From the NCBI GenBank assembly GCA_011043375.1, contig DQYP01000172.1, positions 1 through 39,086 on the forward strand: a stretch of 39,086 nucleotides of DNA, in the 5' to 3' direction. The stretch comes from Thermotogaceae bacterium (GTDB lineage: Bacteria; Thermotogota; Thermotogae; B21-G9; HyVt-16). Shown one piece after another: positions 228-37,622 of the stretch. The notes under the pieces are model-generated. The model was not told the DNA's origin. It made no database searches and saw only the letters and a list, made by a program, of their open reading frames with translations. The translations under genes were made by a program, and so were the position numbers. Numbering within the stretch: the first letter of the stretch is position 1; every line of letters starts with the position of its first letter.

Positions 228-3200
228 TTGGCTGTTGTAAGCCAGGAAGTTAACATAAATATAGTTGCTCAGGATAGGGCTTCTGCTATACTCCAACAAG
301 TTAAAATGCAGCTCGAAGATCTTCAGAGAGCTGCACAAAGTGCTTCTATAGGCTTTGGTAACATGACCACGGCTACTTCTCGTGTTTCCTCAAGGCTTCA
401 AACCGTTCAGAGAACATTTAGAACACTTGGGACTACCCTTAGAACTGTAGGCGATGCTGCCAAAACTCTTGGAAATGCTTTTATTGCAACACCACTTTAT
501 GCTTTCTCTCGTTCTGTAAGTTATCTCAACCAGCAACTTCTCAACATGCAGAGAAGTTTCATTACATTGCAATACGCCACGGAAGGTTTCTTGCGAACAA
601 TGATGATGGGGTTAGTGGGAGTGGCTGGTGGCGTATTTGGTTTAGCGGCCAACTATCAAAGATCCGCCGACGCCATTGCACTTGCTTCTACCATGACAGA
701 AGTGAGATTAGAAAAAGTTAGAGATATGGCTTTTGAAGTGGCCACAACCGTTGGAAAGCCAGTTGAAGAGGTAGCCAATGCCATATATATGATTGGTTCT
801 GCAGGGATAAGATCGCAAGCGGAAATAGAGAGAGCCTTGAAGGCAACCGCCGCCGCTGCTGTTGCAGGCGGCTCTGACATGCAGCAAACATTTCAGACCG
901 CGATAGGAATGGTTAATGCCTTTAAGGATATGGGATACACTTTGCAAGATGTTTATGCAAAAATGTTTAAAGCGATGAAGCAGGGATTGCTGACTTTTGA
1001 AGATATGGCAACCTATTTTGGTGTTATAACGCCAGCTGCAAACCAGTTAGGTGCTTCACTTGATGAAGCCTTGGGCGCGTTTGCCGCTTTGACTAAAATG
1101 GGATTGCTTCCCGCGAGGGCTGCTACGGCCACTCAAATGGCATTTCAGGATATTTTTGAAAAAGCTGATAAATTAAAAGAGTTAGGAATAAACATTTATG
1201 ATGCTCAAGGAAGATTCAGGGGCTTATATAGCGTTATAAAAGACCTTGCAGATAAAATGGCTGGCATGACCGACGAAGGGAAACGTGCGGTTCTGGAGAC
1301 GATAGGTTTCGAAGTAAGGGCAACAAGGGCTATAATAAACTGGATAAATCGTGTCGATGAGTTAAAAGCGATGATAGAAGATGTTGGGAGCGCTTCTGCA
1401 GAAGCCGCCGAGGACGAAGAAGACGCCTTTGTGAAAGCAGGGCAATCTGTTGCTATGACTTTTAGGCGTATTCAGCAGGAGATTCAAAGAATAATAGACT
1501 CGTTAATGCCTACATTTAATCACATTTTGCTTAGAACGCTACCAATTATTCAAAATTTAGGAAAGTGGGCCGAAAAAAATCTCGAAGGCATTTTTGATAA
1601 CTTGCTGAATATAGGAAAAGCACTGTTGCCCATCGTTATTCCTTTAAAAGTTGCCTCAGTTTTTGCTGGTGACCTCTTCCAAATGTTTTACACACTTATA
1701 CACATCATAAATCCATTTAACATCGTAATGGGCGGAATGTTGTTTGCACTATATCAATACCTTTCTGAAAACAAAGAAATACTGGACGATTTAATTGACA
1801 AAGCACGTGAAGTAATTGACAAAATCAAAGTGAGTTTCATAGAACCTATTATCACAGCGGCAAGAAAAGGAGATTTTGTAAAAGTATTTGACATTATAAT
1901 AGGCGGTCTTGCAGAATTGATCGGGAAGGCCATTGTAAAAGTTGCTGAATACCTTAAAGAACACGGTAAGGAAATATGGAAAGCGTTTACAGGTGCCGCT
2001 GGTGAAATTGGCGGTGGTGTGGTAGAAGCAGTATTAGAAGTGACAGGATTTAAGCCTAGTGAAGATATGAAAGGCGACGATGCTTTTGTTAAGAAACTTA
2101 AAGAAGCGTTAGGAGTGGCTGTAATAACAGGTGTTACCACAGGGCGCTTGGGTTTGGCTGTCAAAATTGCGTCTTTGTTTTGGTTAAATGATGTCAAAAA
2201 AGGTGACCTTAAAATGACTGAGCGTCTCAAGATTGCATTTGGGGATATGCTTGCCACTGCTATTTTATCAGAAGGCAAGCCTATACCTTTTGCAGCTATT
2301 TTGACGTTCAAATCTGTGAAAGATACCTTAGAGAATGGTTGGAGTTTAAGAGATGTGATACGAAATGTTATTATTGCCGCTTTTGTGGGAGCCGGCTTGG
2401 GATTGGCTACCAAAAGTCCACAAATAGGCGCCTTGGCGTTTTCGGTGACACTTTATATCATTTCAGAGTTTTTCCCTGGCGACCCAATGAAGCGAGTAAA
2501 AGAATTAAAAGAACGTCTTGCTGAAATAAGTTCAAGGGTTTTTGAAAAGGGTATTCCTGCTCCCGAAACTGCTATGGTTTATAAACAACAAGTGATGAGA
2601 GAATTAGGAAGTATTGCCACATTATTAGGAAACGTTGATCTCTCCAAAGTGAAAAACATTCAATATTTTTCAGAATCCTTAAAACAGTTTAACGACACAT
2701 TTGCAACACTTTCAAAGAATGTAGATAGATTATCTGTTGCTGAATTTCAAAGTCTTGTGAATCAACTCTTGAAGTTATTACAACAGATGATTACTGCGTA
2801 TGAATTTCCAGCCAAACTCGAAGAAATGGGAAAAGAAAATTGGTTTACTAATTTCCTTGGGTGGTTGAACGAGTTATACAAACGTACAGGAAGCCCAGCT
2901 ACACAACCTTTTAATCCTCTTTATACAGGTGGAGGCCATCAAGCTGGTGGTTACACGGCCGATATTGGCGTTAACAAAATTGCTGGTGTTGTTCATGGCG
3001 GAGAATGGGTAGCGCCTGCTTGGATGGTAAAACATCCACTCTACGGCGCTCTAATAGCTTGGCTGGAGCAAAAGAGAATTAGAGGATTTCAAGGCGGTGG
3101 TTCTGATAAACCGATTACCACAAGGCCGCTGGATATAGAAGGCACAATCAAAAGAGCATTTGAGTTAGGCAAAGTCCTCAGTTCGTTAGGAAATGTATTT

Positions 3201-4835
3201 GAAGATACAAGTAAGACTATTGAGGAGTTTTCTATTGACAGGTTAAGAAATTTGTTTAGAGAGTGGACTAAAGCCGAAAGAGGTGCGCCTTTACCACCTC
3301 CAAGAACTGGTTACACACCCGCTGGTATCATCTTACCTTCTGTTGAAGAATACAACGAATTGGTAAAGACGTTGTTAAAATATAGCGATATACTTTCTAA
3401 AGTAATTGCAAACGAAAACGAGCGTTTAGTTATTTCTGCGAAATTAGCAGTTGACAAAAACATTGAGACTTTAAAGGAACTGGCTGAGTTGTTAAAACAA
3501 AGCGCAACCAGCGGAAAGGATGCGGTAAGCGCCTTTAATAGAATTGCTGATGCTCTGCAGTTAAGTGCCAAAGCTCAACCCATTGCAGAAGATCTGGCAC
3601 GTTATTTTGACTTCAAAGGATTATATGAAAGCATGCAGATGTTTGCACCTGTTTCTGCAAAAATGGTAGATGTTAATAAATTGATGACTATGAGTCTCTC
3701 GGACTTCGTTGATGTGTTGCTGGAGACAACTTATGAGACAGGCAAGGTTGATAGCAGCGTGTTGAAGCTTTACAACGACTTTGTGGACTATAGAAATATT
3801 CTAGGTGATGTTATAGACGAAGAGAAGGAAAGATTAGTGACGGTTACAAAATGGAGTCAGCACCTGAAAGAGTTTGGGAAAGCAGGAAAGAATATGGCAA
3901 ATACACTTTACAATTGGACGAAAGACTCTAAAGAGTTACAAGCGGTAGTTGAAACCAATTTGACGGATTTTGATAAATTCAAAACCCTATTGGGCGGGGT
4001 AGCTGGGCTGTTTAGACCAGAAATGCTCGCGGTAGCGGCTGGAGGGGTTGGCATTCCAATAGCTGCGGGCTTAGGTGGCGCTTTAGGTATTGAAGCCGCA
4101 AAAGGCAACATAGGAGGGGTGCAGAGTTTCATAGGCGCAATTGGAGATGCTCTGATGGGTTTGATGGTTTCACTTATCCAGGTATTTGGGCCGTTAATAA
4201 TGCAATTAGAAAATGTGCAAGCGGTATTGTTCCCATTCCAGACGATTTTGCAGGCTATATGGGATGTATTGGGGCCGGTAATAAACCAGGCATTTGCTCC
4301 TTTGGCGACGATGTTAAAAATCATTGGAACGGTTATTGGTAATTTGCTATTGCCTGTTTTGCAGCCGTTACTAAGCGTATTTCAATTATTAGCAAACGTA
4401 ATGGCCATGGCATATAATATGATGTTGCCCGGGATTAGAATACTGTACATCTTAGCGTCGATGGTGGGAAATGTATTCAAAATGATTTATAACGCCTTTG
4501 CGAGTTTCTTTAACTGGTTGGCAGATCAGATAAATAATCTTCTAGGGTGGGCAGGAATTCATATTGGTCACATGAAGCTCAAGAAAGTCAAATCCTTAGA
4601 CGAAATAATGAAAGAGGCTGAACAGAAATTCAAACCGATTTCCGCAGAAGGATTAACTGGAATAGCGATGCAAACACAAGCTCAGTATACAGCAAATGTT
4701 TCTAGAACTGGTCCCGAAACTGTGAATATCTACTTCCAGAATTCTATAATATACGGCAACGAAGAGGTGTTCAAAGAACAGGTGCTTAAATGGGTGAAAG
4801 AATGGGTTAGTGAAGGAGTAGTTGGGATTGGATGA
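228..4835 (+). CDS. tail tape measure protein (TP901-type core)
   Basis: 1535-aa ORF with TTG start at 228 preceded by GAGGTG (215-220). The region around aa 140-380 (ALASTMTE..IGSAGI..FAALTKMGL..) resembles the TP901-family tape-measure core as I recall it. It has a long helical middle and Gly-rich/hydrophobic C-terminal segments. Confidence 0.9.
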   Translation: MAVVSQEVNINIVAQDRASAILQQVKMQLEDLQRAAQSASIGFGNMTTATSRVSSRLQTVQRTFRTLGTTLRTVGDAAKTLGNAFIATPLYAFSRSVSYLNQQLLNMQRSFITLQYATEGFLRTMMMGLVGVAGGVFGLAANYQRSADAIALASTMTEVRLEKVRDMAFEVATTVGKPVEEVANAIYMIGSAGIRSQAEIERALKATAAAAVAGGSDMQQTFQTAIGMVNAFKDMGYTLQDVYAKMFKAMKQGLLTFEDMATYFGVITPAANQLGASLDEALGAFAALTKMGLLPARAATATQMAFQDIFEKADKLKELGINIYDAQGRFRGLYSVIKDLADKMAGMTDEGKRAVLETIGFEVRATRAIINWINRVDELKAMIEDVGSASAEAAEDEEDAFVKAGQSVAMTFRRIQQEIQRIIDSLMPTFNHILLRTLPIIQNLGKWAEKNLEGIFDNLLNIGKALLPIVIPLKVASVFAGDLFQMFYTLIHIINPFNIVMGGMLFALYQYLSENKEILDDLIDKAREVIDKIKVSFIEPIITAARKGDFVKVFDIIIGGLAELIGKAIVKVAEYLKEHGKEIWKAFTGAAGEIGGGVVEAVLEVTGFKPSEDMKGDDAFVKKLKEALGVAVITGVTTGRLGLAVKIASLFWLNDVKKGDLKMTERLKIAFGDMLATAILSEGKPIPFAAILTFKSVKDTLENGWSLRDVIRNVIIAAFVGAGLGLATKSPQIGALAFSVTLYIISEFFPGDPMKRVKELKERLAEISSRVFEKGIPAPETAMVYKQQVMRELGSIATLLGNVDLSKVKNIQYFSESLKQFNDTFATLSKNVDRLSVAEFQSLVNQLLKLLQQMITAYEFPAKLEEMGKENWFTNFLGWLNELYKRTGSPATQPFNPLYTGGGHQAGGYTADIGVNKIAGVVHGGEWVAPAWMVKHPLYGALIAWLEQKRIRGFQGGGSDKPITTRPLDIEGTIKRAFELGKVLSSLGNVFEDTSKTIEEFSIDRLRNLFREWTKAERGAPLPPPRTGYTPAGIILPSVEEYNELVKTLLKYSDILSKVIANENERLVISAKLAVDKNIETLKELAELLKQSATSGKDAVSAFNRIADALQLSAKAQPIAEDLARYFDFKGLYESMQMFAPVSAKMVDVNKLMTMSLSDFVDVLLETTYETGKVDSSVLKLYNDFVDYRNILGDVIDEEKERLVTVTKWSQHLKEFGKAGKNMANTLYNWTKDSKELQAVVETNLTDFDKFKTLLGGVAGLFRPEMLAVAAGGVGIPIAAGLGGALGIEAAKGNIGGVQSFIGAIGDALMGLMVSLIQVFGPLIMQLENVQAVLFPFQTILQAIWDVLGPVINQAFAPLATMLKIIGTVIGNLLLPVLQPLLSVFQLLANVMAMAYNMMLPGIRILYILASMVGNVFKMIYNAFASFFNWLADQINNLLGWAGIHIGHMKLKKVKSLDEIMKEAEQKFKPISAEGLTGIAMQTQAQYTANVSRTGPETVNIYFQNSIIYGNEEVFKEQVLKWVKEWVSEGVVGIG

Positions 4836-27915: not shown

Positions 27916-27998
27916 AGTCTCCCCTCCTTTTTATAAATGTCTTCATCCATCAAACGAGAGTTGTTTGTATAAACGTGTTTTAGAGCTCCTAGTTTCAT
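27906..27998 (-). CDS. 30-codon ORF
   Basis: ATG lies 5 nt after GAGGAGGTG. The 3' end overlaps the start of the 127-aa gene. Not in the supplied track because it is under 60 aa. Confidence 0.35.
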   Translation of the reverse strand: MKLGALKHVYTNNSRLMDEDIYKKEGRLWK

Positions 27999-28015
27999 AC
28001 TTACACCTCCTCAGT

Positions 28016-28180
28016 TCATTCTCTAAAGAATTTGCTCTGTATTGCTTTCAATTCTGCAACCATTATTATTAATTTATCTATTTCTTTGAAAGCCTCGAAA
28101 ACAAAGCTGTGTTCTAAGAGGCTTTCGATGTGAGAAATTTTATCCCGTATTTCCTCAAGGGCGCGATAAAGTTCATCCAT
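28016..28180 (-). CDS. 54-codon helical ORF immediately downstream of tnpB
   Basis: ATG 28180 lies 6 nt after GGGAGGTGA, which overlaps the tnpB stop. Translation is MDELYRALEEIRDKISHIESLLEH... The region could alternatively be omega RNA / IS right-end sequence. Confidence 0.35.
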   Translation of the reverse strand: MDELYRALEEIRDKISHIESLLEHSFVFEAFKEIDKLIIMVAELKAIQSKFFRE

Positions 28181-28185
28181 TTCAA

Positions 28186-29520
28186 TCACCTCCCAAACTT
28201 TTTATACCATATTTCTTGAGAATTGTCAAGATACTTTTCAATCCTTCTTAAAAGGTCAGCTACTCTCCCCCCTAAAGAAGGAGAGCTTGCTCTACCGGTT
28301 TGACCGGGAGCATTAGGCTGGCTGACAAGCAGCCCCTTTAGATTCTCTTCTTGGGTTTTTGAAAGCTCACGAAGTGCGATATTGATCGCTCCAACTATAT
28401 CTGCATGCTCTTTGTAACCACAGTTCTGACAAACAAATCTTTCTCCATGGTTGGGTCTGTTGTTTTTTGAAACGTACCCGCACACAGGACATGTTTGAGA
28501 GGTATAGCTTGGATCTACATATACAGCTTGAACTCCGTAGTATAAAGCTGCTTTGTATTCGATCTTCTTCTGGAGCGATGCAAAAGGCCATTGCTCAGCT
28601 TGCCGTCTTGCTTCTTTATCTTTGCCGCGATACGTAACGCGGTTGGAGCGAATCTGAGTCAGGTCTTCCAAGACAAACCTAGCCTGAGGATGGGATTCAA
28701 CCAGGGTTTTTGAAACGATGTGTAGCACGTTCTCGGTAAACCGTTTTTCCCGCCTGCTAAGCTTCTGGAGTTTTCGCTTAGCAGAGCGGGTGCCTTTGGA
28801 CATTAGCTCAGAGCGCAGGTTGTGATAACGTTGTTTTCTGCGTTTGACTTCCTCAGGCAGATTGACAAGATATTTCTTTCCGGTTGTTGAAGCAACAGCC
28901 ATGATATGTCTTTCGCCAACATCGACTCCGACGATTTCTTTGGGACGCCGCTCTTGAATTTCAAGAGTTACAGGAACCAAGAGAAAGAATGTCTTAGAAG
29001 AGCGATCATAACTGAGGATAGGATCACCGATTTTCCCTTGTCGCAGGTACTCATAATGCTTATTCCAACCGTAGATTCGTATCCACTTTAGACGGCCTTG
29101 CAGAGTTGAAATGGAAACGTAGATTTCGTTCCAGTTGGCAAATTTGAAAGATACAGTTCTGTTGTACGTGTATTTGGCGATTAGAGACTTTCGCTTTGGA
29201 GGCTTATCCCAAAATTTCTTAGTAGCTTTCGAATCTGGCTTTCTGCGTTTCAACTCTTTGAACTGAGCCCAAAGGGTTTTGTAGATCGCAGCGGCGTCTC
29301 TGTTAACGTTCACAGCAAGTTGAGCAGGAAGACCAAATCGCTCTCTGATAGTCACATAATATGCATGGTGTAGTTTCTTCACATTAGTGGTCTTATCAGA
29401 CAGGTTTTTAGACAGCACAAAGTTTACGGCTTCTGTATACGCTTCAGCCGTCTCAAACAATTGCCTCTTTTGCTCTTTTGTGGCGTCAAACTTGAATTTA
29501 AGCATAAGCACCTGTTTCAT
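28186..29520 (-). CDS. tnpB: TnpB (IS200/IS605-family OrfB, RuvC-like RNA-guided nuclease)
   Basis: Typical N-terminus MLKFKFDATKEQKRQL. RuvC triad candidates are GVDVGE, FVLEDL and HADIVGAINIA. Zinc ribbon CPVCG..CQNCG. The tracked ORF starts at TTG 29526 and ATG 29520 is preferred. Confidence 0.85.
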   Translation of the reverse strand: MKQVLMLKFKFDATKEQKRQLFETAEAYTEAVNFVLSKNLSDKTTNVKKLHHAYYVTIRERFGLPAQLAVNVNRDAAAIYKTLWAQFKELKRRKPDSKATKKFWDKPPKRKSLIAKYTYNRTVSFKFANWNEIYVSISTLQGRLKWIRIYGWNKHYEYLRQGKIGDPILSYDRSSKTFFLLVPVTLEIQERRPKEIVGVDVGERHIMAVASTTGKKYLVNLPEEVKRRKQRYHNLRSELMSKGTRSAKRKLQKLSRREKRFTENVLHIVSKTLVESHPQARFVLEDLTQIRSNRVTYRGKDKEARRQAEQWPFASLQKKIEYKAALYYGVQAVYVDPSYTSQTCPVCGYVSKNNRPNHGERFVCQNCGYKEHADIVGAINIALRELSKTQEENLKGLLVSQPNAPGQTGRASSPSLGGRVADLLRRIEKYLDNSQEIWYKKFGR

Positions 29521-29522
29521 CT

Positions 29523-29792
29523 TCAATCACCACTATATGAGATTATATTCCAGATAAAGAGATAGCCCCAGTATCCTGTATATAGTGCTTTTAGGTAAGA
29601 GAAAACTGGAAAATTAAATATCATTTGCAGTCCTATTACGCCGAATGGAACTACTATGAATGTTATAAAAAGATCTTGTGCTATTATTGACCATATTGGT
29701 GTTTTTAAAATAGCATATTTCATAACCTGCAGAGTTATAATCATGCGCAGCGCTAATACTACCCAGAAAGCTATCCAGAGAACTATCATCAT
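29523..29792 (-). CDS. small integral membrane protein (about 3 TM)
   Basis: RBS GAGGAGGTGA. Hydrophobic throughout. The stop overlaps the tnpB start region. Confidence 0.6.
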   Translation of the reverse strand: MMIVLWIAFWVVLALRMIITLQVMKYAILKTPIWSIIAQDLFITFIVVPFGVIGLQMIFNFPVFSYLKALYTGYWGYLFIWNIISYSGD

Positions 29793-36244: not shown

Positions 36245-36601
36245 TTACGAAATAATGGTCGGTTGTGTTCCGCCCTTCAGCCATTCGTAAACCATTTTCA
36301 ATTCGGTATCTGTTGAATTCATTGACATAACATCTATCACGAACGGCATATCTTCCTCATCATGCTTGAGTTCTATAAATCTTTCCCTTTCGTTTTCACG
36401 CCATTCAACATCGACTATTTCGAAATCAGGAATAGAGCTTTGAATGTGTCCGTAAAGAAATACTAGCACATTCACTTCATCATCGCGGGCTATTTGAGAC
36501 AGCGCAGGAAACACTGTAAAATGAAACCCTCCAGGAAGCGAAACTCGAAGCAAAAGCGTTGCAGTAAAAGGATATTCAGAAATCAGATAAGACAATCTCA
36601 T
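36245..36601 (-). CDS. hypothetical protein
   Basis: ATGA overlap with the upstream gene. Confidence 0.6.
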   Translation of the reverse strand: MRLSYLISEYPFTATLLLRVSLPGGFHFTVFPALSQIARDDEVNVLVFLYGHIQSSIPDFEIVDVEWRENERERFIELKHDEEDMPFVIDVMSMNSTDTELKMVYEWLKGGTQPTIIS

Positions 36602-37101
36602 CGGTTATCCACCTCGCACGCACCAAGCAAAACTTTTGATTCATTTTGAATTCCAAAAACACAACTTACTAAAAATTTTTGATTCCACATGCCTACCACC
36701 CATACTATATCAGAATTAAATGTTGTGAAAGCTTTATTTGCCAGTAGTAAAGAGGCAATATAAAGCTTTTGAGCATCTTCTGTAGAATAGCCTGCGTGAT
36801 ATACAAAACGCCCTTTGCCTTGTTTCACCATAAAAAGCGCATAAGCGACTTCATACTCTGATGTTTTGAAAGAAGTCAAAAATCCAGTTATATCAGCTGC
36901 ATAAAGCAAGGCGGGAGTAAAACTATCTTGCCAATTTATAACCACACGTTCCCAGTTGTTCCAAAATGGTGCGCCCAAACTTTCGGCTATAAACGGATCC
37001 ATTATTCTCCCAAAATCGTCGTATCCCATTACAAACAGCCCTGTCCCAAAAACAAAAGAAGTTGCAATCAGCAAACACAAAACAAACTTACTCATCAACA
37101 T
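36598..37101 (-). CDS. hypothetical exported or membrane-anchored protein
   Basis: The N-terminus KFVLCLLIATSFVFGTGLFVMG is hydrophobic. Coupled to the SLT gene. Confidence 0.55.
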   Translation of the reverse strand: MLMSKFVLCLLIATSFVFGTGLFVMGYDDFGRIMDPFIAESLGAPFWNNWERVVINWQDSFTPALLYAADITGFLTSFKTSEYEVAYALFMVKQGKGRFVYHAGYSTEDAQKLYIASLLLANKAFTTFNSDIVWVVGMWNQKFLVSCVFGIQNESKVLLGACEVDNR

Positions 37102-37603
37102 CGCCTCCCCTCCGCCTTCTTGTTAACCACCTTAGACTGGGATCTTTTTTAAGCTGCTGATAATACCATTCAACATCGGTATAGTGTTTCCATGTTTCGG
37201 TGGGAACGAATTCATCAATTACCGCATTGTCAGGTGGCAATCGCAACCATTTCTTTAAGTTTCCATAACCATAATTCCATGCAATACCGACTGCAATAAT
37301 ATCGGGTTCATATCCCAACCTGCGTATTCTTCGTTTTGTGAGTTTCAAAAATCTCAATCCAACTTCCAAGTTCACCCTCGGATCAAATAGATCATCATAA
37401 ACATAATGCGTACCATAGATCTTGTTTACATCCCTCAAGGCTATCCTCGAAATCTGCATCAACCCTCTTGCTTCTCCAGAATCTTTCAAAGGATCACCGT
37501 CGCTTTCCGCTAAGATTATTGCCATAACATGCGCGGGGTCTTCATCAAACTCTTCACATTTCTTCTTTACCATCTCCCAGAGCTTCTTAAAATCAGGTTT
37601 CAT
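37088..37603 (-). CDS. lytic transglycosylase (SLT domain), no obvious signal peptide
   Basis: RBS GGAGGTGA. Motifs AIILAESDG, ARGLMQI and AWNYGYGN. Confidence 0.75.
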   Translation of the reverse strand: MKPDFKKLWEMVKKKCEEFDEDPAHVMAIILAESDGDPLKDSGEARGLMQISRIALRDVNKIYGTHYVYDDLFDPRVNLEVGLRFLKLTKRRIRRLGYEPDIIAVGIAWNYGYGNLKKWLRLPPDNAVIDEFVPTETWKHYTDVEWYYQQLKKDPSLRWLTRRRRGGDVDE

Positions 37604-37622
37604 CCTTTCACCTCCAGTCTAT

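Follow-up and report, generated by a model that had tools for sequence, protein, structure and literature searches.

A tnpB-only insertion sequence with a lost left end in a phage operon of a Thermotogaceae metagenome, and the unoccupied allele of its insertion site

Results

A tnpB gene inside a phage operon

The window analysed here is the whole of contig C1 (GenBank DQYP01000172.1; 39,086 bp), one of the 317 contigs that make up a metagenome-assembled genome (MAG) of a Thermotogaceae bacterium. The contig is siphovirus-like, encoding a tape-measure protein, a tail-fibre/virion protein, ThyX and a repair exonuclease, and at 28-29 kb, where G+C content stands at 43% (34-39% to either side), it carries a tnpB gene within a block of leftward genes on the minus strand. 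This gene forms the body of an insertion sequence (IS) of the IS200/IS605 type that comes without tnpA and has lost most of its left end. Table 1 gives the coordinates of the element, its parts and the phage features around it.

A preliminary description of the locus had taken the encoded nuclease to be intact, and closer inspection bears this out. TnpB matches the Pfam families PF07282 (Cas12f1-like_TNB; 79 bits) and PF01385 (OrfB_IS605; 41 bits) and scores 205.7 bits against the NCBIfam model NF040570 (guided_TnpB; cut-off 100), compared with 106 bits against the NCBIfam Cas12f2 model, where the cut-off is 450. The RuvC catalytic triad is present (D200 in GVDVGE, E285 in FVLEDL and D374 in HADIVGAINIA), as is a zinc ribbon with CxxC motifs at residues 344 and 364. 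Both sets of motifs align with those of solved TnpB and Cas12f chains; similarity to the ISDra2 protein (PDB 8exa/8h1j) is only remote (E ~1e-6). Close relatives, 409-421 aa long, are 82-88% identical where they come from metagenomes and 73-75% identical in named Thermotoga species, and by its sequence the protein belongs to a clade common in Thermotoga-like thermophiles. Compared with five of these relatives, the ratio of nonsynonymous to synonymous divergence (dN/dS) of tnpB is ~0.05, with dS near saturation.

The open reading frame (ORF) in the window has no frameshift, whereas the copies in L007 and in genomes G002 and G016 are broken. L007 (positions 1-940) is the closest named copy, 88% identical and found in a Thermotoga sp. 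MAG from Guaymas; it is a pseudogene, with frameshifts, an in-frame stop and a change of HAD to RAD.

How tnpB abuts the gene upstream, which encodes an 89-aa membrane protein, depends on the start codon that is chosen. In relatives the protein begins MKQ(T/V)LML, at the ATG that corresponds to 29520, and from this ATG the TGA of the 89-aa gene is separated by a 2-nt gap. The overlap between tnpB start and upstream stop that had been described initially exists only if the TTG start is used.

Table 1. Features of the tnpB locus and of a second insertion site in the window (aa, amino acids; TAM, transposon-adjacent motif)
Feature	Position	Strand	Basis or remark
Whole inserted element, 1,282-bp tnpB-only IS200/IS605-type (IS1341-type) IS with truncated left end	28255..29536	-	Empty site in L021
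Residual left end ATAGTGGTGATTGAAG, 16 nt	29521..29536	-	Holds the tnpB Shine-Dalgarno sequence and the last codons and TGA of the 89-aa gene
TAM, TCAT	29537..29540	-	Phage flank directly 5' of the element; also in the L021 empty site
tnpB ORF	28186..29526	-	446 codons from TTG
tnpB ORF from the likely ATG at 29520	28186..29520	-	444 aa; codons 1-422 IS-encoded, final 22 codons and stop from phage flank
Omega-RNA scaffold, 3' part, three helices	28255..28349	-	RNAalifold and pair counts, 17 copies; covariance model R1
Scaffold helix	28335-28328/28323-28315	-	
Scaffold helix	28312-28303/28299-28288	-	
Scaffold helix	28286-28279/28269-28262	-	
Predicted guide CTTTTAAGAAGGATTGAAAA (length presumed)	28235..28254	-	Phage DNA immediately 3' of the right end
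Promoter-like TTGACA-N13-ATGG-TATAAA	28201..28229	-	Just 3' of the guide, ~25 nt beyond the right end; read from the sequence, conserved in L021
Phage membrane-protein gene, 89 aa	29523..29792	-	Last codons replaced by IS sequence; translations of the window and L021 alleles
Phage ORF, 57 aa	28016..28189	-	Shine-Dalgarno sequence and ATG overlap the stop of the extended tnpB frame; phage gene, not IS
Unoccupied site for the L013 IS (CCAC + CTCGCACGCACCAAGCAAAA)	36609..36632	+	L013 flank alignment

An unoccupied allele fixes both boundaries of the element

The ends of the element can be read off a sibling phage that lacks it. A neighbouring gene of the window encodes a 268-aa protein with two close homologues in a large protein database (a search of IMG/VR returned no match for it). 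One of them, 93% identical, is encoded on L021, a contig from JGI sample 3300005099 that is 90-94% identical to the window over 26.7-32.3 kb and has no tnpB. Positions 3368-3660 of L021 align with 29822-29537 of the window and positions 3661-3737 with 28254-28178, the junction between the contiguous bases 3660 and 3661 of L021 corresponding to 29537/28254 in the window. Where the empty site reads ...TGGAATATAATCTCAT/CTTTTAAGAGGGATTGAAAAGTATC..., the occupied site reads ...TGGAATATAATCTCAT/ATAGTGGTGATTGAAGATG...GTAGCTGAC/CTTTTAAGAAGGATTGAAAAGTATC...; in brief, ...CTCAT/CTTTTAAG... in L021 has become ...CTCAT/IS/CTTTTAAG... in the window. Both ends are thereby known to the nucleotide, and the insert spans exactly 28255-29536, with no duplicated and no ambiguous bases.

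The insertion point falls within the final five codons of the 89-aa gene, so that its last codons and stop are now supplied by the IS and its C-terminus reads ..NIISYSGD(stop) instead of the ancestral ..NIISSFKRD(stop) encoded by L021. It had been proposed that a fresh IS insertion truncated the upstream gene. The empty site confirms the insertion and the altered C-terminus; the length of the protein, however, is unchanged at 89 aa.

Directly 5' of the element, and also present in the empty site, lies the TAM, TCAT. The same four bases end at least nine other left junctions, including those of relatives that are only 42-45% identical: flanks end in GTCAT in L012, in TTCAT in L050, L053, L052, L060, L005 and L008, in CTCAT in L015 and L059, and in ATCAT in L061. 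With a flank ending in CTCAT, and with TCAT at these other insertions, the window element occupies a site that is canonical for the family. Alignment to related tnpB copies, which had been suggested as a check, agrees with the right boundary and gives the TAM.

An GGTGATTGAA repeat found at both ends of the ORF (29531 and 28190) was considered as a target-site duplication and rejected: upstream it is the ribosome-binding site (RBS) that the IS brings with it, conserved in all relatives, and downstream it is the RBS of a phage gene that is already there in the empty site. Among the other copies, two P0002-type IS (L059 and L061) share the same right flank (ACACGAGTATTTTGG...) and have different left flanks; recombination between copies, deletion beside the IS and chimeric assembly are all possible causes. 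No prophage copy turned up when the flank DNA was searched against 40 related genomes, and in exact-pattern scans of viral contigs neither the right-end core nor the guide/promoter region had a match.

The right end carries a covarying omega-RNA scaffold

Across copies, the 3' region has the common form ...GGGCTGCTTGTCAGCCAGCCTAATGCTC-[stem-loop]-GAGCAAGCTC-[stem-loop]-GTAGCTGAC and turns unrelated right after GAC: in ~25 copies, from genomes and metagenomes alike, a right end in ...GCTGAC is followed by unrelated flanks. The last C of this right end is position 28255 of the window.

Immediately inside it lie three short hairpins in which the preliminary description had seen a possible omega-RNA scaffold. 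All three occur where they had been placed, the GCTG/CAGC hairpin forming part of a longer helix, GGGCUGCU...AG.CAGCCU, and their conservation lies far above chance. RNAalifold, given 17 distinct copies, predicts 26 pairs, half of which (13/26) show compensatory double changes. In the real alignment 95.9% of the cells in these pairs are indeed paired, compared with 84% in shuffles, and none of 500 shuffles does as well; when the partners are slid by 1-3 columns as a control, 32-47% of cells pair. A covariance model of the region (R1) scores 100 bits on the window, the top score against its own family model, and finds the right ends of L005 and L008 at 74-75 bits, although neither is part of the model and their TnpB proteins are 42-45% identical. 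In both, the match straddles the end of the tnpB gene. Because the helices covary and because R1 recovers right ends that it has not seen, we assign the hairpin cluster, by comparative evidence, to the omega-RNA scaffold of this TnpB clade, of which it makes up the 3' part. Folding and covariance modelling of the minus strand, proposed beforehand as a further check, thus yields three covarying helices. Rfam yielded no match to the scaffold, whether at the gathering threshold or at a permissive one.

Scaffolds also occur by themselves. L028, L032 and L049 each have the ~95-nt right-end scaffold without a tnpB upstream, in L032 directly 3' of a tRNA-like sequence, and could be solo omega-RNA remnants or miniature elements. 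L034 (~287-400, reverse strand) has three tandem copies of the second scaffold helix (TAATGCTCCTCAGGGTCTATCCCTGA), which reflects either a real expansion or an assembly artefact.

That the hairpins lie within the 3' coding region, as first described, is correct for this particular ORF and comes about only through read-through past the end of the element. The loop of helix 3 contains six G in the window and five in L012. This one extra G puts the TAG in GAGTAGCTGAC, where the L012-type protein terminates, out of frame, and reading goes on through 22 codons of phage DNA up to a TGA in GGTGATTGAAATG. Since the C-terminal tails of relatives vary in both length and sequence, the simplest view of the 22-codon C-terminal extension is that it results incidentally from a 1-nt insertion in the scaffold loop.

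The guide is the adjoining phage DNA

With the scaffold ending at 28255, the guide must therefore be the phage DNA that adjoins it (CTTTTAAGAAGGATTG...), from 28254 downward, and related copies diverge exactly where this guide begins. It had initially been expected after the tnpB stop codon. Its actual place, directly after the right end, falls inside the annotated ORF because that ORF reads through the element end, so that the RBS-ORF units past the stop, which are phage genes, conflict with nothing. To judge from these alignments the guide has not been retargeted: it is the adjoining DNA, as in any IS200/IS605 element.

What might such a guide recognise? The 20-nt guide occurs once in the window, as its own flank only, and a search of the MAG with the 16-nt guide core, allowing up to two mismatches, gave no more matches than a reversed-sequence control. 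Against positions 3661-3680 of L021, in contrast, there is one mismatch, at position 10. Taken over 24 nt, the empty alleles differ from the corresponding guides at 1/24 positions (L021) and at 3/24 (the window, as the empty allele for a second IS on contig L013, described below). We considered whether these differences are escape mutations and rejected the idea, the matches of 23/24 and 21/24 being no worse than those of the flanks (90-92% and 79-88%, respectively).

The nature of the guide bears on a proposal made at the outset, namely that the phage has domesticated the TnpB and that its guide targets something useful to the phage. Spelt out, the protein would be a nuclease or repressor, TldR-like or Cas12-like, with a guide directed against the host, a plasmid or an unrelated competing phage. 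Consistent with such a role, the element is locked where it stands and, within an early-type phage operon, has a methylase and an XRE-family regulator as its neighbours. TldR proteins are nuclease-dead, RNA-guided repressors derived from TnpB, which are without RuvC catalytic residues and whose guides have been retargeted. The window protein is like them in being a TnpB relative minus transposon mobility; unlike them, it has an intact triad and a guide that was not retargeted. Crucially, this guide is syntenic flank DNA, at the same position as the empty site of the sibling phage. Moreover, neither a second scaffold or guide nor any other guide target was found in the window or the MAG, and the window contains no CRISPR-like repeat array. 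With the IS-free sibling allele as the sole recognisable target, in place of something whose recognition would be useful to the phage, we hold domestication to be very improbable.

The left end has been lost and tnpA is absent

In canonical relatives the TAM and the ATG of tnpB are 104-117 nt apart and the interval contains a strong hairpin, for example GGGTCGTCGGAGACCCATCCCCTTTAGGGGATTGGGAGGAGGCGACCC in L012. The window retains 16 nt, ATAGTGGTGATTGAAG, which equal the last 16 nt of the L012 and L053 left ends. The early remark that the locus leaves no space for a left end is therefore accurate, the element boundary being 16 nt upstream of the ATG. Missing are ~90-100 nt, including the hairpin of the type that TnpA binds: whereas the L012 left end folds at -39.8 kcal/mol, the 100 nt upstream in the window, which belong to a phage gene, fold at -13.5 kcal/mol. 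In canonical copies the 16-nt point is preceded by a conserved motif, (A/C)AGTCTAAT, and the phage flank ends in AATCTCAT; TCTAAT inside the left end and TCTCAT in the flank amount to a microhomology of 5/6 nt.

TnpA of IS608 and ISDra2 needs the left-end hairpin and, with that hairpin lost, TnpA should no longer be able to excise the window element. Nor is there a tnpA in the window, as had been observed before: a Y1_Tnp search found none there and, in the MAG (84% complete), no more than two matches, on contigs C51 and C234, both of them short or broken fragments. Judged as a standard IS, then, the element has a clear right end and a TAM signature but neither a left-end hairpin nor a further copy in the MAG.

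We propose that canonical integration 3' of TCAT would have come first, and that a deletion of ~90-100 nt, flush with the TAM, would then have taken the left end between TCTCAT in the flank and TCTAAT. Alternatively, there may never have been a full insertion, the element having entered already truncated: aberrant left cleavage at TCTAAT/ might have yielded a short circle for TnpA to paste in 3' of TCAT, or a fragment might have been captured in the course of microhomology-mediated repair. This would accord with a left junction placed exactly after a TAM-like motif in both the flank (TCTCAT) and the canonical left end (TCTAAT), and with the clean junction, which has no extra bases. However, as TnpA of IS608 and ISDra2 requires the hairpin for cleavage as well as integration, a hairpin-less circle should integrate poorly, and a canonical right end combined with an exact TAM flank is more simply obtained by canonical integration than by the repair of a break. 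Entry in truncated form is, in our view, distinctly unlikely; insertion followed by deletion is the order we adopt.

Imagine, on the other hand, that the IS inserted, lost its left end and has been a dead-end passenger ever since, TnpB and omega RNA being either not made or without effect. Such an inert remnant would persist only since a deletion removing it has yet to happen. The missing left end is what one would expect of it, and so is the scarcity of partners: the MAG has tnpA fragments only and no second copy of the IS by protein, DNA or covariance-model search, its two other tnpB fragments being only 33-36% identical. In the 40 related genomes, too, close copies are rare and those present are broken, and copies of the clade are decaying more generally (frameshifts and a stop in L007, 5' truncation into the ORF in L004, fragments in G002 and G016). 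If the element were inert, however, we would not expect its ORF, catalytic triad, zinc ribbon, RBS and whole scaffold to be intact, with the top score against the family model. It also lies in-line in a phage operon, so that it would in all likelihood be transcribed, and the tnpB element is present in each of the four assemblies that carry the phage (4/4), 1.28 kb having been kept despite phage packaging pressure. On balance we consider an inert remnant unlikely and prefer to think of a nuclease that may still function.

A second tnpB element occupies another site in the sibling phage

L013, a contig from the same sample as L021 (3300005099), carries a second tnpB IS, 84% identical to that of the window. 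Its flanks, L013 3-217 and 1550-2544, correspond to window positions 36401-36615 and 36611-37605, which puts the junction at 36612/36613 of the window, ambiguous by 3 nt (CTC). Occupancy of the two sites is reciprocal: the window has an IS at 28255 and none at 36612, and in the phage of sample 3300005099 it is the other way round. The L013 IS has a left end of a different type, 73 nt in length and folding at -10.9 kcal/mol, without the hairpin present in its nearest relatives L014, L040 and L047, and it likewise lies within the last few codons of a gene. The four left junctions of this L013 type ('type 2') show no single TAM consensus. Two different tnpB elements have thus entered this phage group independently, at gene ends, and the left-end hairpin has been lost from both. 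The relative in L014 (2300-3800; 86% identical) is an IS copy nested in the zinc-ribbon region of another, unrelated tnpB, on a contig weakly similar to the window at 12.2-13.4 kb.

Phage genes flanking the element

Other genes in the window include an N6/N4 methylase, an XRE-type regulator and one tRNA. The 89-aa membrane protein has no Pfam match. On the other side of the element, the 57-aa ORF is conserved in L021 (3919-4097; 90.5% identical), and the promoter-like element probably starts the next phage transcription unit; a simple promoter scan passed over it, the -10 hexamer ending in A.

Between the 89-aa gene and the homologue of the 57-aa ORF, L021 has an extra ORF of 65 aa (L021 3725-3932). 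An 11-nt direct repeat, TGATTGAAATG, flanks this ORF on both sides and forms the stop/RBS/start junctions there. The window has a single copy of the repeat at 28186-28198 (minus strand) and no ORF, which suggests gain or loss of a gene cassette via recombination at repeated junction sequences. A further ~1.2 kb of L021 (4098-5265), with four small ORFs of 76, 124, 116 and 68 aa, is missing at 27936-28016 of the window.

Discussion

Having placed the boundaries, TAM, scaffold and guide of an element that belongs to the IS200/IS605 group, has lost its left end, comes without tnpA and has not been retargeted, we wondered how it might still gain from its nuclease. With the left end gone, any selfish advantage must come from TnpB alone. 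We favour, with a probability of about 0.75, the explanation that this is a non-autonomous, tnpB-only IS200/IS605 element, to which at most TnpA-independent homing against IS-free siblings would still be open. The phage operon upstream would supply the transcript, a promoter that the left end might have held being gone and the RBS kept, and from the 3' end of this mRNA TnpB would process its omega RNA. The sole DNA recognisable to the resulting complex would be the unoccupied allele, TCAT + CTTTTAAGAAGG..., in co-infecting sibling phages. Once cut, this allele would be repaired from the IS-bearing genome, so that the element is copied in. Copying of this kind, a TnpA-independent, non-restorative form of homing, would constitute a gene drive, and to us homing against IS-free sibling phages appears plausible.

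A number of points weigh against this account or limit its reach. Omega-RNA production and TnpB activity are predictions. The order of events, insertion before deletion, is read from one microhomology of 5/6 nt. What is defined of the scaffold is its 3' part. The mismatch at position 10 of the L021 allele falls within a local divergence of 8-10% and so speaks neither for nor against cleavage or escape. Finally, loss of the left end might have been thought a general trait of viral copies, an idea we rejected, as the left end is complete in the IS of L005, a viral contig of 104 kb.

The element shares its basic design with well-studied relatives. As in ISDra2 of Deinococcus radiodurans, an IS200/IS605 tnpB element with an omega RNA (Karvelis et al. 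2021, PMC8612924), and in the IS605 elements of Geobacillus (Meers et al. 2023, bioRxiv 10.1101/2023.03.14.532601), there is a RuvC D-E-D triad with a zinc ribbon, the scaffold derives from the tnpB 3' end plus the right end, the guide is the right-end flank, and insertion takes place 3' of a short TAM without target duplication. The TAM differs from that of ISDra2 (TCAT rather than TTGAT) and, unlike either system, the window element is without tnpA, its left-end hairpin is deleted and its scaffold is outside Rfam. Processing of its own mRNA into omega RNA by TnpB has been shown for ISDra2 (PMC10278001). Much closer are the multi-copy chromosomal elements in Thermotoga-like genomes and metagenomes (P0002 family: L059, L060 and L061; L012, L050 and L053; the P0008 locus L015 of Thermotoga spp.), with 73-88% amino-acid identity and the same right end, scaffold, TCAT TAM and GGTGATTGAA-ATG arrangement of RBS and start codon. 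These relatives keep a left end of 104-117 nt with its strong hairpin and have ORFs of 409-421 aa that terminate within the right end, whereas the window copy has a 16-nt left end and a read-through ORF of 444 aa.

Spread that depends on TnpB and not on TnpA has been shown among plasmid copies in E. coli (Mears et al. 2025, PMC11870625). As in that IS605 plasmid gene drive, an IS-bearing replicon would be favoured over IS-free copies, and this would be the only activity open to an element without a left end; unlike the plasmid case, the phage case is so far only proposed, its equivalent in co-infecting phages, 'transposon non-restorative homing', being treated as theoretical in a review of OMEGA systems (PMC13565253). 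Phages have a precedent of another kind in the free-standing homing endonuclease genes SegF, SegB and Mob of T-even phages (reviewed in PMC13565253). Here, too, a nuclease gene between conserved phage genes could cut an insert-less allele and be copied into it. Recognition would differ, relying on an RNA guide plus TAM instead of on protein, and self would be told from non-self by whether the insert is there, which resembles the homing of introns rather than that of SegF, SegB and Mob.

What the locus offers is a resolved natural example, with boundaries known to the base, a TAM (TCAT), a defined guide and the empty allele in hand. As a compact TnpB with 422 IS-encoded residues, from a clade associated with thermophiles and presumably thermostable, the protein is also of the interest routinely attached to candidates for genome editing. 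For the biology of these phages, the locus and the reciprocal insertion in the sibling form a ready test pair for possible TnpA-independent homing between phages, a process so far shown only for plasmids. It is possible, and we put it forward tentatively as something we doubt more than we believe, that hairpin-less tnpB elements persist and spread in thermophile phages purely as RNA-guided homing elements, locked at different sites. If this were true, two such elements that met in a co-infected cell would each cut the other's allele and either convert or exclude it. This would be an RNA-guided analogue of the marker exclusion exerted by the T4 Seg and Mob nucleases, and might represent a step on the way from a transposon to a defence nuclease carried by phages.

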